A stretch of DNA of 64,000 bases from positions 6,855 to 70,854 of the forward strand of contig JACROV010000079.1 of assembly GCA_016214285.1 (NCBI GenBank), in the 5' to 3' direction. The DNA is from Candidatus Omnitrophota bacterium (GTDB lineage: Bacteria; Omnitrophota; Gorgyraeia; Zapsychrales; Zapsychraceae). The notes below the pieces were generated by a model, which was given only the letters and a program-made list of their open reading frames with translations, made no database searches and was not told where the DNA came from. The position numbers and the translations under genes were made by a program. Positions 14,076 to 20,154 of this stretch are shown here, piece by piece; position 1 is the stretch's first letter, and the number at the start of each line of letters is the position of its first letter.

Positions 14076-14087
14076 TACACTTGTAAC
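14074..14087. promoter_or_regulatory. Conserved palindromic operator-like motif gttacacttgtaac (copy 1)
   Basis: Perfect 14-bp palindrome repeated at 16842-16855, where it overlaps a TTGACA-N16-TACACT promoter. Here it lies about 30 nt upstream of a small ORF with a good ribosome-binding site. Confidence 0.45.
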
Positions 14088-14113
14088 AAATTTGCTACAT
14101 GTAAGGAAGGTTA

Positions 14114-14281
14114 ATGGAAATTCTGAAGTGGTTTAAGATGTTTTTCCGTGAAAATAATAGGCGTCGATTATTGCGGCAGCAGTTAGAGAAAGAATCCAAG
14201 GTAACTCGGGCAGCCTCGCTGGAAGTACTCCACGAGATGGAAGAACTGGATGACGATTTGAACTGCGAATTCGGTCATTAA
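14114..14281 (+). CDS. Small hypothetical protein (56 aa)
   Basis: ATG with ribosome-binding site taaggaagg. Its 3' end overlaps the first GAATT hairpin. Below the 60-aa cutoff of the ORF track. Confidence 0.3.
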   Translation: MEILKWFKMFFRENNRRRLLRQQLEKESKVTRAASLEVLHEMEELDDDLNCEFGH

Positions 14282-14472
14282 TGACCGAATTTGAATTGCC
14301 CGGGCGACAGGTGAATTCAGTCGGTGCCGACTGAATTTGGACTGCCCAAGCGACAGGCAAATTCAACCGACATCGGCTGAATTCGAATTGCCCGAGACGT
14401 GAGATGAATTCCGCAGACGTCTGCGGAATTGCCCGCGGCAGGGACGCGGGGAAAAGCGGCGGAGGGAAAAGG
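14267..14472. repeat. Array D1: four GAATT-flanked 25-nt palindromic hairpins separated by (t)gaattgcccgggcgacag units, ending in a G-rich tract
   Basis: Hairpins gaattcggtcattaatgaccgaatt, gaattcagtcggtgccgactgaatt, aattcaaccgacatcggctgaatt and gaattccgcagacgtctgcggaatt. The terminal gaattgcccgcggcagggacgcggggaaaagcggcggagggaaaagg recurs at 16578 and 18011. Confidence 0.75.
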
Positions 14473-14559
14473 TGTGCGTCGCCGGAGAAACTGGCGCGCG
14501 GCCCGGCGGGATTTGGAAGAATTGGCAGGGAAAAGCATTTTCCGGGAAAGGAGAAACTT

Positions 14560-14760
14560 GTGGGCAAATATAAATTAAACAAAAAAATTGTAGTCATATC
14601 GTCTTTGGACGAAACCGATGAAAAGGATTATTGGAAGTCACGGACACCAACAGATAGATTGAAGGCCATTGAAATAAACAGGAGGATTGTATATGGATAT
14701 GCCCATACTTCCCCAAGATTTCAGAGTTTTTTTGAAGTTGCTCAACTCCAAAAGAATTGA
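14560..14760 (+). CDS. Small hypothetical protein (66 aa, GTG start), possible partner of the downstream nucleotidyltransferase
   Basis: Ribosome-binding site aaaggagaaacttGTG. The upstream portion of the listed ORF 14404..14760 covers repeats and is spurious. The 74-nt overlap with the next gene makes this call uncertain. Confidence 0.3.
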   Translation: MGKYKLNKKIVVISSLDETDEKDYWKSRTPTDRLKAIEINRRIVYGYAHTSPRFQSFFEVAQLQKN

Positions 14761-15142
14761 GTATCTGCTCATCGGCGGTTATGCCGTCGGCTATTACGGT
14801 TATCCACGCGCAACAGCTGATATGGATATATGGATCGCTATCAGCAAAGAGAACGCGAAGAAGATGACAGAAGCAATTAAGGATTTCGGCATGAAGGCTC
14901 CCGCTTTAAACGAGGGTATTTTTCTTGAGCCCGGGAAAATAATCAGGATGGGATATCCGCCGATAAGAATAGAAGTGCTGACAGAAATATCAGGAGTAAA
15001 TTTTAAACAATGCTATGCCCGGCGCGAAGAAATAAAAATTGATGGAATAAAAGTAAAAATGATATCATTGGGGGATCTTTTGAAAAATAAAAAGGCGAGT
15101 GGCCGGCATAAAGATCTAAATGATCTGGAAAATTTAAGATAA
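14687..15142 (+). CDS. Pol-beta superfamily nucleotidyltransferase (MNT/DUF6036-like), candidate TA component
   Basis: hG[GS]x9-13DxD NTase motif in LLIGGYAVGYYGYPRATADMDIWI. AT-rich relative to the genome. Confidence 0.6.
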   Translation: MYMDMPILPQDFRVFLKLLNSKRIEYLLIGGYAVGYYGYPRATADMDIWIAISKENAKKMTEAIKDFGMKAPALNEGIFLEPGKIIRMGYPPIRIEVLTEISGVNFKQCYARREEIKIDGIKVKMISLGDLLKNKKASGRHKDLNDLENLR

Positions 15143-15204
15143 CAAGCGGGTTGAGCGCTCAATTCAGACCAGGACGCTTCCGGAGTGTCCTGCGGCATTA
15201 ACAA

Positions 15205-17963: not shown

Positions 17964-17972
17964 TGCTTAACC

Positions 17973-17997
17973 CCCGGCAACACCGGGTGTTGCCGGG
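17973..17997. repeat. GGCAACACCGGGTGTTGCC palindromic element, family E copy 1 (intergenic)
   Basis: Perfect 25-bp palindrome cccggcaacaccgggtgttgccggg. Other copies at 24383-24403 (inside alr) and 61947-61975 (inside lnt). Confidence 0.8.
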
Positions 17998-18010
17998 GCC
18001 GGGCGGACAG

Positions 18011-18122
18011 CGAATTCAGTCGACGTCGACTGAATTTGAATTCGTCAGATATCTGACGAATTCGCCAGCTAGCTGGCGAATTGCCCGCGGCAGGGGTGCT
18101 GGAAAGCGGCAGAGGGGAAAGG
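18011..18122. repeat. Array D3: two GAATT-flanked palindromic hairpins plus a gaattgcccgcggcagggg... G-rich tract
   Basis: cgaattcagtcgacgtcgactgaatt and gaattcgtcagatatctgacgaattc, then gccagctagctggcgaattgcccgcggcaggggtgctggaaagcggcagaggggaaagg. Confidence 0.75.
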
Positions 18123-18169
18123 TACACGTTTACGGGGAATATCGGTACAGAAATACATTGGATATCCAG

Positions 18170-18637
18170 ATGAAGAAGCCAGTAATTCAGTTAGAGCGTA
18201 CAGGTTGTGGTATCGCGAGCGTGGCTGCGATCGTCGGTTTCTCTTACCTGAAAATGAAGTCGATCGCGAATTCTTTGGGTGTCTTTGCGCATGACGAGAC
18301 TTTGTGGTCGAACCCGTCTCACGTGCGGAAGTTGTTGAGGCGTTTCGGCGTGAGAGCTGGCTCACGTGAAATACCTTTCCGCTCTTGGGAGACGCTTCCT
18401 GATCTTGCACTGTTGTCGATCAAGTGGCATCTTGAGAAAGGCCGTCCTTATTGGCATTGGGTAGTGTTCGTTCGAGAAAATGGGCGATCCTATGTGCTGG
18501 ATTCAAAAAAGCGTCTGCGTAGCAACGTCAGAACGGACTTTGGGCGTATGAAGCCAAAATGGTATATCCCGGTCATTGATGTCCAGCAATGCGTTCAATG
18601 CGATCGCGCCGGCAATAATAGACAGATAGAATCATGA
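18170..18637 (+). CDS. Peptidase C39-like (papain-fold) domain protein
   Basis: Catalytic-Cys context QLERTGCGIASVAAI and His context WHWVVFV. The real start MKKPV is about codon 70 of listed ORF 17963..18637, whose N-terminus is repeat DNA. The coordinate may be off by one. Confidence 0.55.
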   Translation: MKKPVIQLERTGCGIASVAAIVGFSYLKMKSIANSLGVFAHDETLWSNPSHVRKLLRRFGVRAGSREIPFRSWETLPDLALLSIKWHLEKGRPYWHWVVFVRENGRSYVLDSKKRLRSNVRTDFGRMKPKWYIPVIDVQQCVQCDRAGNNRQIES

Positions 18638-20154
18638 AGACTCCATTTTACGTCACAACTCCTATCTATTACGTCAACGATAATCCACACATCGGGCACG
18701 CGTACACGACGATCCTTGCTGATGTTTTGGCGCGTTACCACCGTAACGAGGGCGATGAAGTCTTTTTCCTGACGGGTCTGGATGAGCACGGGCAAAAGGT
18801 CCAGCAGGCGGCGCAGAAGCGTGGAGTTCCCGAGCAGCAGCATTGCGACGAGCTCGCGCCGCGGTTTTCCGACCTTTGGAAGAAGCTCGAGATCCAGAAC
18901 GACGATTTTATCCGCACCACCGAGCCGCGGCATATCAAGGCCGTCCAGGCCGCGCTGCAGAAAGTGTATGACGCGGGGGACGTTTATACGGATGAATACG
19001 AAGGCTGGTACTCGGTCGCTGAGGAACGGTTCATCACCGATACCGAGAAAGATTCCGGACATTTCCGCGACGTTAAAAAACTAAAGGAGCGCAATTATTT
19101 CTTCAAGATGAGCAAATATCAGCAAAAGCTCATCGACTATATCAACGCCCATCCGGAATTTATCCAGCCCGAACATCGCAAGAATGAGGTCTTGGGATTT
19201 TTACGCCAGCCGCTGGGGGACCTGTGCATCTCGCGTCCCAAATCGCGCATGGGCTGGGGCATCGAGATTCCTTTTGATAAAGAGTATGTCACCTATGTCT
19301 GGTTCGACGCGCTGATCAATTACATCACGGCATCGGGATATTTGGTAGATGAGAAAGAATTCAAGAAGTGGTGGCCGGCGTCGGTCCATTTGATCGGCAA
19401 AGACATTTTGACGACCCACGCGGTGTACTGGCCGACGATGCTTTTTTCATTGGGGCTGCCGCTGCCGAAAACCATCTTTGCCCACGGCTGGTGGCTCATC
19501 GGCGAAACGAAAATGAGCAAGTCGTTGGGGAATGTCGTTGATCCTTTAAGTTTGGTTGACCAATACGGCGTTGACCCGGTGCGCTATTACCTGATGCGCG
19601 AGATGGTCCTGGGGCAGGACGCCAATTTCACCATGGAATCGTTCATCAAACGCTACAACAGCGACCTGGCGAATGATTTCGGGAATCTTTTGAATCGTGT
19701 CAGTGGTCTTATTGGAAAATATTTTGACGGCTGCGTTCCCAAAGAAGGTCAGGCGTGGGCGCCGGATAAGGAGATCAGGAAGGTTGCCGACGGGCTGGCC
19801 AAGAATATCGAAGAGTTGATCAATGGCATGCGCGTCCACGAGGCCCTTGAACAGGTTTTGGTGTTGATCCGCAACACCAACGTGTATATGGAACACCAGG
19901 CGCCTTGGAAAGAGGCGAAAGAGAATTTGGAACGGGCGGGAACGATCCTTTATACAGCAACGGAGGCGCTGCGCGTCAGCGCGATTCTGCTTCTTCCGGT
20001 TATGCCCGCGAAGGCGAATACGGTTTTAGAGATTTTAGGAGCGGTGGGGACAGAGCCGTGCTGGGGGCAGCTCAAGGCCGGGGCAAAATTACAAAGCCAC
20101 GACGCGCTTTTCCCGCGATTAGACGCTGAAGGCAAGGTTATAACTAAGAGTTGA
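18634..20154 (+). CDS. metG: Methionine--tRNA ligase (short form)
   Basis: HIGH motif (PHIGHAYT), KMSKS, connective-peptide zinc-knuckle region and an anticodon-binding domain. No C-terminal EMAP domain. Confidence 0.95.
   Translation: MKTPFYVTTPIYYVNDNPHIGHAYTTILADVLARYHRNEGDEVFFLTGLDEHGQKVQQAAQKRGVPEQQHCDELAPRFSDLWKKLEIQNDDFIRTTEPRHIKAVQAALQKVYDAGDVYTDEYEGWYSVAEERFITDTEKDSGHFRDVKKLKERNYFFKMSKYQQKLIDYINAHPEFIQPEHRKNEVLGFLRQPLGDLCISRPKSRMGWGIEIPFDKEYVTYVWFDALINYITASGYLVDEKEFKKWWPASVHLIGKDILTTHAVYWPTMLFSLGLPLPKTIFAHGWWLIGETKMSKSLGNVVDPLSLVDQYGVDPVRYYLMREMVLGQDANFTMESFIKRYNSDLANDFGNLLNRVSGLIGKYFDGCVPKEGQAWAPDKEIRKVADGLAKNIEELINGMRVHEALEQVLVLIRNTNVYMEHQAPWKEAKENLERAGTILYTATEALRVSAILLLPVMPAKANTVLEILGAVGTEPCWGQLKAGAKLQSHDALFPRLDAEGKVITKS

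Follow-up and report, generated by a model that had tools for sequence, protein, structure and literature searches.

A second, dead metG start within a mosaic cassette array between yaaT and metG in groundwater Omnitrophota

The window, a stretch of 64,000 nucleotides (64 kb) from an Omnitrophota contig, carries a series of small gene cassettes between two conserved genes, and the features mapped below from yaaT to metG all lie on its forward strand. The left flank is yaaT (13115–13924; PSP1 family, Pfam PSP1 1.6e-32), which is syntenic across all Omnitrophota loci examined, and the right flank is metG, encoding methionyl-tRNA synthetase (18634–20154; Pfam tRNA-synt_1g 7.9e-108). A GTTACACTTGTAACAAATTTGCTACA motif (14070–14099; repeat D8, 87% identity, second copy at 16838–16867) represents the relic of an MNT-cassette promoter/operator; it is found 3' of yaaT in L001, L002 and L092, and within the MNT promoter in L003, L088, L094 and L096. 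It is followed by orf55 (14114–14281), a truncated RHH-type antitoxin relic comprising only the C-terminal half and lacking a MazF partner, whose tblastn matches are the full RHH antitoxin of RHH/MazF cassettes in L003, L082 and L092. Hairpin block R1 (14264–14503) consists of four 24-nt palindromic units with a 46-nt period and a tail (GAATTGCCCGCGGCAGGG...GGGAAAAGGTGTGCGT). The adjoining NTase cassette (14560–15142) is formed by orf66 (14560–14760) and a nucleotidyltransferase gene (14687–15142), which Pfam assigns to DUF2204/DUF6036, in agreement with a preliminary description of the locus.

Downstream of this cassette, a leader hairpin (AGGACGCTTCCGGAGTGTCCT; 15171–15196, repeat D9), which precedes the live metG in L002, L003 and L083, is now joined to a dead metG' fragment (15227–15297). 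This fragment comprises the first 71 nt of metG (MSSKFYVTTPIYYVNDNPRIGHA), ends in the codons of the HIGH motif and lies 3.4 kb upstream of the live gene. Its ATG at 15227 (MSSKFYVTT...) is the start codon orthologous to that of metG, and it matches the metG genes of relatives at 53–55 of 59 positions. The small ORF covering it had been described as 93 nt long (15205–15297); the ORF exists, with an extent of 15218–15298 (26 codons plus stop, 81 nt). The diverged second copy of the metG start recognized in that description is real, as 15238–15297 and 18645–18704 constitute a 60-nt direct repeat with 87% identity (52/60), and the binomial probability of a chance match of this quality anywhere in the window is about 1e-13. 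The repeat is coding sequence (metG nt 12–71), and seven of its eight mismatches are synonymous third codon positions, which indicates that the two copies diverged as working genes. This bias has P = 0.0026 if differences fall evenly across codon positions and, by our own estimate, P of about 0.03 if only the live copy was constrained. Similarity located in codons and diverged almost only at third positions also argues against a conserved regulatory leader as its source. The two copies show no relationship in the three codons that follow the ATG or in any of the sequence upstream, and the sole identical run, 15 nt (CATCGGGCACGCGTA), lies at the inner edge of the repeat.

Between the two copies (15299–18633) are only a frameshifted DUF4143 gene, an MNT–HEPN pair and a small, possibly papain-like gene; these had been placed there before, together with the NTase module, which is in fact located upstream of the fragment. 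The interval begins with 30 nt of unplaced junction filler (15299–15328), without significant match elsewhere, that separates the fragment from the DUF4143 promoter. The DUF4143/AAA_14 ATPase cassette (15336–16605; Pfam; PADLOC candidate PDC-S01, 4e-93) has its own promoter at 15336–15364 in a promoter scan, and its gene is a pseudogene, as reported earlier: one extra T is present in the run 15441–15443, and deleting it restores an N-terminus like that of an intact homologue. Block R2 (16546–16715; head, three units, tail) is followed by a second copy of the metG leader hairpin (16725–16750; D9, 85% identity to 15171–15196) with no metG attached, which, to judge from the leaders of L003 and L083, possibly marks a former metG-proximal end of the array. 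The MNT–HEPN cassette (16822–17963; Pfam; PADLOC PDC-M05A) contains the expected wHTH-MNT (16948–17556) and HEPN (17553–17963) genes, overlapping by 4 nt, behind a promoter/operator at 16822–16867 (promoter TTGACA-16-TACACT by promoter scan), and ends at block R3 (17964–18135; head hairpin, three units, tail). The last ORF (18170–18637) had been called a C39-like peptidase, a label that finds no significant sequence match in Pfam, NCBIfam or PDB. It encodes a small conserved protein, possibly papain/C39-like, in which Q7, C13, H96 and D111 are invariant; the fold of a structure model of medium confidence (pLDDT 66) weakly matches staphopain (E 0.23) and the peptidase domain of ComA (TM 0.37–0.44). 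Its stop overlaps the ATG of the live metG (ATGA, 18634–18637), whose 5' end (18634–18704; MKTPFYVTT...) contains the second repeat copy at nt 12–71. The native leader of the live gene is gone, and the leader usual for the clade is retained by the dead fragment instead; both the MKTP... start and the missing leader are atypical for the clade.

The blocks of 24-nt palindromic hairpins between the cassettes are REP-like; their head and tail are conserved, a closing stem of 8 bp is present, and the boundaries towards the next cassette vary. RNA folding gave z-scores of -5.2 for R1 and -7.7 for R3, and the blocks had no Rfam match. Many tails share a similar 9–10-nt string, GG[YR]CGCGT, and lone units occur in ordinary intergenic regions (position 24224 of the window; 13144–13228 in L003; 9488 and 9894 in L088). 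Similarity to individual relatives breaks off within or near R3 at 18042, 18098, 18122 or 18142, a scatter that fits homologous exchange and not one fixed crossover. REP and BIME elements of enterobacteria and pseudomonads are short extragenic palindromes that lie singly or in clusters at gene 3' ends; in neisseriae, intergenic mosaic elements occur with "minimal mobile elements" whose cargo is exchanged by flanking homology. The metG locus shares with these systems the extragenic palindromes and the character of a hotspot between conserved genes where cargo is swapped by homologous recombination. The differences from these systems are that each unit is a perfect palindrome in which the GAATT base is conserved and the stem covaries freely, that the units are concentrated at a single locus, and that no RAYT-type transposase was present among the scanned ORFs.

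In distant Omnitrophota, the gene order is cysS-tmk-holB-yaaT-metG-mtnA-thiL, with a yaaT–metG gap of just 15–330 nt that contains no hairpin blocks, confirming that the intervening genes are foreign to the conserved neighbourhood. In a sub-clade of groundwater Omnitrophota, this gap reaches 1–4.7 kb and holds differing, reshuffled cassettes. The comparison covered about ten arrays, mostly on short metagenome contigs, and the cassette sets of L001, L002, L003, L083, L088, L092, L093, L094 and L096 differ, so the gap does not hold an invariant set of genes. MNT–HEPN stands directly after yaaT in L003, L088, L094 and L096, with 88–90% nucleotide identity to the window copy, and its next neighbour is the small possibly papain-like gene in the window, RHH/MazF in L003, a 253-aa gene in L088, the NTase in L094 and an HNH gene in L096. 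In L106, the DUF4143 cassette with its block adjoins the small possibly papain-like gene directly. At the metG-proximal junctions there is a full leader in some arrays, a partial leader in others, and in yet others an ORF whose stop overlaps the ATG, and metG itself is mosaic among relatives (66–95% identity in 150-nt windows). The region 14080–18640, previously taken as one element, is a mosaic of separately reshuffled cassettes, and the repeat encloses only 15299–18704.

Of the relatives, L083 and L092 possess metG 5' fragments of their own, which end at about nt 69 and about nt 104, respectively, compared with nt 71 in the window; the ends in the window and L083 lie within 2 nt of each other, at GGGCACGCGTA, a proximity of two out of three ends that we estimate to have about a 5% chance if junctions are random in the first ~100 nt. 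L083 additionally carries a live NTase–block–leader–metG arrangement, collinear with the NTase–leader–fragment order of the window. This collinearity supports the earlier proposal that the 5' end of the gene was invaded and its original start displaced; the dedicated integrative element included in that proposal is not sustained, because none of the about ten arrays examined has an integrase, the DNA joined to the fragments differs in the three genomes, and the window junction, just upstream of the DUF4143 cassette's promoter, is not at a cassette boundary.

The favoured reading, held with middling confidence, is an insertion-duplication in a cassette hotspot, made by the host's own recombination, either homologous or illegitimate. 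Accessory DNA that brought a metG start with it would have recombined into the 5' end of metG, and the fragment at 15227–15297, still with its leader and NTase cassette, would have been cut off from the metG body by a 3.4-kb stretch consisting of the frameshifted DUF4143 gene, a block, MNT–HEPN, a block, the small gene and then a different metG start; the fragment is inferred to be the former resident copy. Host recombination, rather than an element-encoded integrase, would be the agent, and its partners may have been the conserved 60–70-nt HIGH-motif segment of metG and a related array ending in its own metG 5' end. This result could have come about when a circularised fragment integrated by a Campbell-type single crossover, or when DNA taken up by the cell was joined illegitimately with homology as an anchor. 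Campbell-type insertion-duplication by a circle carrying a 5' gene fragment is used for laboratory gene disruption, and the locus shows the same succession of a truncated 5' copy with its native promoter, an insert and a complete gene preceded by insert DNA. Unlike the laboratory procedure, this would be a natural event involving only ~60 nt of homology at 87% identity, which is a short and imperfect RecA-type substrate and counts against host recombination. The nearly coincident ends in the window and L083 also weigh against it, as does the GG[YR]CGCGT string of the block tails, which would fit a step guided by a specific sequence or by microhomology. The comparison also revealed neither a circular intermediate nor a donor array, and no empty site in the same population.

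The nearly coincident ends and the recurrent tail string would be accommodated by the earlier proposal, taken as a site-specific integrative element whose target is the HIGH-motif codons of metG and whose core lies near GGGCACGCGTA, with an attP supplying a replacement 5' end and an integrase that is lost or acts in trans. That an island can replace the 5' end of a gene, presented earlier as the protein-gene analogue of tRNA-end integration, is an idea already established for dusA-specific genomic islands and prophages (Farrugia et al. 2015, PMC4482086). As in those islands, a conserved housekeeping gene has foreign DNA in its 5' end, the ORF stays intact through the incoming 5' end, the old 5' end forms the outer boundary, and the two 5' ends constitute an imperfect direct repeat, here with CATCGGGCACGCGTA at its inner edge. 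SXT/R391 elements at prfC behave similarly to the dusA islands. The dusA islands, however, have a tyrosine integrase beside att, a conserved 21-bp att sequence and circular excision (PMC4482086), whereas the metG locus is a patchwork of small cassettes with non-uniform ends. No integrase, RAYT or other recombinase was found among the ORFs of the island and 20 other non-housekeeping ORFs of the window, consistent with the preliminary description; one DDE transposase lies 29 kb away. On the element side, the window, L083 and L092 have unrelated sequences next to the putative core, and the L092 fragment ends ~35 nt further on. Moreover, similarity to the L106 DUF4143 cassette starts only at about 15329, 30 nt downstream of the window junction, and the 185 nt of contig that precede the gene of that cassette contain no metG fragment. 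The right-hand ends are also unlike: the window and L092 have an ORF overlap there, L083 a block and a leader. A trans-acting recombinase at GGGCACGCGTA is possible, but an integrative element as a whole appears unlikely.

The polarity of the event might also be reversed, a scenario that we consider improbable. In this case, DUF4143–MNT/HEPN–small gene–metG would be resident, and orf55, the block, the NTase cassette, the leader and the first 71 nt of metG would be immigrant, so that the fragment was imported and not displaced; the immigrant DNA would have been anchored by yaaT homology, and illegitimate joining would have attached its broken right end in front of the DUF4143 promoter. The position of MNT–HEPN directly after yaaT in four relatives, at a core-like 88–90% identity, gives it the look of an old resident, while the NTase cassette has a low GC content (0.43–0.48 in the GC profile) and 95% nucleotide identity to L083 and 93.5% to L094, compared with ~85–90% for core genes, which suggests recent transfer. 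The join to the 30-nt filler likewise looks illegitimate. Against this, high identity to L083 ends at 15167, and the leader and fragment are only 73–85% identical to L083, which implies that they have not travelled recently together with the NTase cassette; furthermore, the live MKTP... start without a leader, which would be the resident one, is the atypical state in the clade.

Integron arrays and integrase-less attC clusters (CALINs) consist of small, uniformly oriented genes, many of which are toxin-antitoxin pairs, with a structured repeat after each. The metG locus resembles them in its one-directional, toxin-antitoxin-rich cassettes, in the strongly structured repeat with conserved head, tail and 8-bp closing stem after each, and in occupying a fixed chromosomal site where content and order differ among close relatives; leader and metG 5' relics within the arrays further suggest growth at the metG end. 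A new integron-like system, with blocks akin to attC, the metG GGGCACGCGT site akin to attI and a recombinase encoded elsewhere in the genome, is nevertheless very doubtful. The repeats are tandem perfect 24-nt palindromes without RYYYAAC...GTTRRRY core pairs or an Rfam match, neither IntI nor another integrase was found nearby, single units occur in ordinary intergenic regions as with REP elements, block boundaries vary, several cassettes have promoters of their own, and the array borders on an essential gene, into which it sometimes extends. The window can hardly be explained without foreign DNA, whether by an assembly artefact or by a local tandem duplication that later decayed: microhomology-mediated duplication is plausible in L083, whose two metG copies differ at only 3 of 66 coding positions, but the third-position bias and the unrelated first codons and upstream sequence of the window copies oppose it, the 15-nt identical run is too short to mislead an assembler, and comparable structures recur in two independent assemblies of other samples.

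Under the favoured insertion-duplication by host recombination, the leaderless metG is presumably transcribed from the cassette promoters at 15336–15364 and 16822–16849, and its translation is presumably coupled, via the ATGA overlap, to that of the upstream ORF. The hairpin blocks probably offer patches of homology at which cassettes are reshuffled, and probably also act as RNA structures in the spaces between them. The yaaT–metG gap is a clade-wide hotspot, occupied by a mosaic, one-directional array of toxin-antitoxin and defence-type cassettes.

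The intergenic region between yaaT and metG in this groundwater Omnitrophota genome carries a stranded copy of the metG start in addition to the live gene (18634-20154). The two share a 60-nt direct repeat, in which 52 of 60 bases are identical between 15238-15297 and 18645-18704, and a binomial estimate puts the chance of such a repeat anywhere in 64 kb at ~1e-13. The upstream copy is a 26-codon ORF (15218-15298), with the ATG orthologous to the metG start at 15227; it encodes MSSKFYVTTPIYYVNDNPRIGHA and ends right behind the HIGH-motif codons. The fragment ORF reported in the preliminary description is real, although its start had been placed 13 nt off. 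A conserved regulatory leader, raised there as a possible refutation, fails as an explanation because the similarity is confined to metG coding nt 12-71 (codons 4-24) and is absent upstream; a T-box or any other leader was rejected as its source on this ground.

Seven of the eight differences between the repeat copies are synonymous third-position changes, a pattern with P = 0.0026 if differences fell evenly over codon positions and, by the authors' own estimate, P ~0.03 if only the live copy were constrained. Each copy thus evolved as a functional gene in a lineage of its own, and one of the two was acquired by transfer. A comparison between the first 59 nt and the remainder of metG cannot reveal the foreign copy, as this segment is 85-97% identical throughout the clade. 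A hairpin (15171-15196) and a short leader precede the fragment, and the same features precede live metG at the relatives' loci L002, L003 and L083. In L083, the succession of NTase gene, hairpin block, leader and metG forms a working gene, with which the window's NTase-leader-fragment segment is collinear. The live window metG is without the clade leader: its ATG overlaps the stop codon of the upstream ORF (ATGA, 18634-18637), and its first codons read MKTP as against the clade's usual M-x-S-x. Exact look-up returned no database record for this MetG or for the 155-aa protein encoded immediately upstream; for YaaT, a 100%-identical protein is recorded on an 83-kb NCBI contig. A test of the sequence preceding the NTase cassette for relics of metG, run on the window and on the related locus L092, gave nothing above shuffled controls. 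A second leader hairpin lies at 16725-16750, inside the array and without metG, as if it marked a former metG-proximal array end.

The gene order cysS-tmk-holB-yaaT-metG-mtnA-thiL is conserved across the phylum Omnitrophota. In more distant relatives the yaaT-metG gap measures 15-330 nt with nothing island-like in between, while in a sub-clade with metG ~82-92% identical it extends over 1-4.7 kb and differs in content from genome to genome. Among the loci of this sub-clade, the gap holds an antitoxin relic and a membrane protein (L001), another MNT-HEPN pair with a DUF1643 gene (L002), or MNT-HEPN accompanied by RHH/MazF (L003), by a 253-aa protein (L088) or by an HNH protein (L096). L093 combines an MNT-HEPN deletion relic with a second MNT-HEPN-type pair and a 233-aa protein, and L092 holds five cassettes. 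The view that the intervening genes lie outside the conserved yaaT...metG neighbourhood is borne out by the short gaps of the distant relatives, and the refuting outcome of the same genes without variation clearly fails since the content differs between genomes. An independent assembly of the window's organism, Logan contig L087, breaks 131 nt after yaaT (window ~14055), just before the array, as would be expected if strains differ at the hotspot or if its repeats interrupt assembly. On the far side of metG, the metG-mtnA spacer (20155-20228) contains short tandem repeats, in which two copies of GGTCACAAAGTCACCC face about four TGTGACTT units as an inverted pair.

The cassettes encode families that Pfam recognizes: a DUF2204/DUF6036 NTase, an AAA_14/DUF4143 ATPase, a wHTH-MNT protein and a HEPN protein, all as first assigned. 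The NTase module had been placed between the two metG copies, but it sits upstream of the fragment; it is low in GC and 95% identical to its counterpart in L083, vs ~85% for flanking core genes. The DUF4143 gene is indeed frameshifted by one extra T at 15441-15443, removal of which restores the N-terminus of an intact homologue. The MNT and HEPN genes are adjacent with a 4-nt overlap (Pfam NTP_transf_2 4.2e-9, HEPN 1.6e-8), and this predicted one-operon arrangement of an NTase and a HEPN gene is that of a type VII toxin-antitoxin pair; an MntA match is weak and below the family cut-off. PADLOC lists the DUF4143 protein as candidate PDC-S01 (4e-93) and the MNT protein as PDC-M05A. Judged by its predicted families, such cargo is typical for exchange sites of this kind.

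For the last gene of the array (18170-18637), initially described as a C39-like peptidase, searches of Pfam, NCBIfam and PDB sequences gave nothing significant. Q7, C13, H96 and D111 of its 155-aa product, a candidate Gln-Cys-His-Asp catalytic set, are invariant in 30 homologues, and weak fold matches to staphopain (E 0.23) and the ComA peptidase domain (TM 0.37-0.44; model pLDDT 66) would be consistent with a possible papain- or C39-like cysteine peptidase. The family lacks a Pfam model (homologues P0121-P0240), and more than 3000 members are 70-83% identical across Omnitrophota, Nitrospirota, Burkholderiales and Thermoanaerobaculia, a degree of conservation between phyla that is suggestive of horizontal mobility. 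In one unrelated genome the homologue is a stand-alone gene among other toxin-antitoxin genes, a setting uninformative on metG. Decayed cassettes occur as well. At the left end of the window's array, the small gene orf55 retains just the C-terminal portion of an RHH antitoxin, joined to the 3' half of the MNT promoter/operator in front of it, and in L093 a 60-codon ORF (3461-3643) directly after yaaT fuses the MNT start to the HEPN end as an in-frame internal-deletion relic. In L094, a ~165-nt insert (6962-7125) rich in short inverted repeats, possibly a miniature mobile element, interrupts HEPN within the MNT-HEPN cassette. A further accessory pair of the window, at 57393-59013, is made up of an AAA_16 ATPase and, behind it, a small MNT-type nucleotidyltransferase, and 41843-50607 is a type I restriction-modification locus (hsdR, a Fic-domain gene, hsdM, hsdS) with a DUF4372/DDE_Tnp_1 transposase on the opposite strand (47316-48527) and two small ORFs between hsdM and hsdS.

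All array genes are co-oriented with metG, and blocks of 100-250 nt separate the cassettes. Each block opens with a hairpin, GGCAACACCGGGTGTTGCC...GCCGGACGGC, continues with one to six perfect 24-nt palindromes that have a constant GAATT base, a freely varying stem and often a 46-nt period, and closes with a tail, GAATTGCCCGCGGCAGGG, often extended to ...GGCGGCGGAGGGAAAAGG[YR]CGCGT. The tail 17-mer occurs in the window only at 14426, 16689 and 18078. The palindromes (GAATTC-N14-GAATT, or ATTCGCCGC...GCGGCGAAT) form tandem blocks at 14264-14503, 16546-16715 and 17964-18135, and the blocks fold far better than shuffled sequence (z-scores -7.7 and -5.2). In 45 distinct units, 96.7% of stem positions are paired and 94 changes are double-sided, a count that is partly circular because the units were chosen for being palindromic. 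Single palindromes also occur in the window at 13982-14005, 24224-24247 and 28708-28731, and relatives carry single or triple units outside the array (L003 13144-13228; L088 9488 and 9894; L009 16155 and 16191). Because single units lie in ordinary intergenic DNA, the family appears to behave like a REP-type family concentrated at this locus, as judged for dispersal from ~64 kb of the window's genome. Between 13901 and 18700 no RYYYAAC ... GTTRRRY pair was found on either strand (shuffled mean 0.68), and Rfam returned nothing credible at gathering thresholds over the whole window or at permissive settings over the island, so the blocks are not attC sites. A viral source of the terminal block motif was rejected: a search of viral contigs gave one chance match in a phage structural gene, without hairpins. 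The extended tails, which end in GGGAAAAGG[YR]CGCGT (window 14471-14485 and 18121-18135; also L001, L088, L092, L094 and L106), resemble the HIGH-codon string of metG, GGGCACGCGTAC (18694-18705), where two metG fragments are truncated. This likeness between short strings could be microhomology, a recombination core or coincidence.

Cassettes have been reshuffled among relatives. In L003, L088, L094 and L096 the MNT-HEPN cassette immediately follows yaaT, but in the window it sits deep inside the array, and five different neighbours occur downstream of it. In L106 the DUF4143 cassette adjoins the 155-aa gene, while in the window MNT-HEPN and one block separate them. Similarity to relatives stops in the third block at differing points (18042, 18098, 18122, 18142). 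The live metG (18634-20154, compared with loci L001-L096) is itself a mosaic, with 66-95% identity to a given relative by 150-nt window and a closest relative that changes from segment to segment. These reshuffled neighbours, varying breakpoints and mosaicism, together with the high identity of the NTase cassette and the decay relics, fit a hotspot whose content is renewed by homologous exchange via flanks and blocks, alongside deletions.

Two relatives carry comparable stranded metG starts: in L083 a fragment (8978-9050) is followed by the NTase cassette, and in L092 a fragment (13774-13857) is followed by a second MNT-HEPN-type pair, which here too ends in a stop codon that overlaps the ATG of metG. 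No further metG 5' fragment was found among 80 genome loci. The window's fragment is homologous to metG as far as nt 71, that of L083 to about nt 69 and that of L092 to about nt 104. The locus is most likely an insertion-duplication, in which a piece of a related array with a metG 5' end of its own at its terminus would have recombined with the conserved first ~70 nt of metG. This could proceed through a Campbell-type single crossover of a circularised fragment or through illegitimate joining after DNA uptake, anchored by homology; either route would yield a truncated copy and a complete gene on the two sides of the insert. The shortness of all fragments would be explained if only metG-preserving events persist and repeats avoid subsequent deletion only when they are short and diverged. 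Expression of metG would then probably depend on cassette promoters (15336-15364, 16822-16849) with translational coupling. Which copy was the resident one is suggested by the leader and the N-terminal codons, and the same insertion-duplication with reverse polarity is a rival.

A minority reading attributes the fragments to a site-specific enzyme or element acting at GGGCACGCGTA in the metG HIGH codons. Two of the fragment ends do fall inside GGGCACGCGTA at positions no more than 2 nt apart, and the extended block tails repeatedly contain a similar string, GG[YR]CGCGT. The joined DNA, however, is mutually unrelated in the three cases: degenerate block-tail material in L083 and L092, and in the window 30 nt of unplaced filler with no significant match anywhere. 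This filler abuts the DUF4143 cassette ~45 nt before its ATG, just upstream of the cassette promoter, while the L106 copy of DUF4143 is preceded by a block tail, and the 185 nt of contig ahead of that gene contain no metG fragment. Just upstream of live metG genes, the junctions grade from a complete leader over a partial one into overlap with an ORF, and the leader hairpin without metG inside the window's array also speaks against a fixed site. The preliminary description had noted no integrase. Pfam matched no recombinase in any island ORF, and none appeared in the relatives' arrays or among 20 other window ORFs; the only transposase belongs to the IS inside the type I restriction locus, 29 kb away. 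The scanned window ORFs include no RAYT (Y1 HUH) transposase, the window lacks any tRNA or tmRNA as a possible att site, and the island matched nothing in plasmid and phage collections. The boldest form of this reading is improbable: that the blocks and a GGGCACGCGT site in the metG HIGH codons would be recombination sites of an undescribed cassette-capture system, integron-like with other sites and another enzyme, whose recombinase, encoded elsewhere, adds cassettes at the 5' end of an essential gene, with stranded metG starts and leader relics marking successive insertions.

The insertion-duplication reading can be set beside several known systems. [quoted passage not shown] The metG locus resembles dusA/prfC-type islands in its imperfect direct repeat of the gene's 5' segment (52/60) and in an ORF kept intact from 18634, but neither an integrase nor a conserved 21-bp att sequence is seen here. 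As in integrons and CALIN arrays, co-oriented cassettes are each followed by a structured repeat and vary between relatives; unlike them, the array has no attC core pairs and no IntI, and it is flanked by yaaT and metG. The palindromes recall REP/BIME elements, as short intergenic units kept as hairpins with compensatory changes, albeit in a set preselected as palindromic, and the hotspot as a whole recalls "minimal mobile element" sites exchanged through flanking homology. The locus combines known kinds, a gene 5'-end replacement and a repeat-punctuated accessory hotspot. The original observation holds apart from details of placement, and its interpretation, integration of an element at the metG 5' end, is only partly supported.

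For annotation, these results explain a spurious 26-codon "gene" and a metG without its own promoter region. Should the GGGCACGCGTA end-point and the block-tail string reflect a dedicated enzyme after all, as the minority reading has it, the locus would represent a new cassette system. More broadly, the highly conserved end of an essential gene can, in an uncultivated phylum, anchor a rapidly changing stock of genes of the toxin-antitoxin and defence types. The anchor here consists of the HIGH-motif codons of a class I tRNA synthetase, with no integrase visible, and DNA traffic reaching into metG is tolerated because the incoming DNA brings a replacement start.
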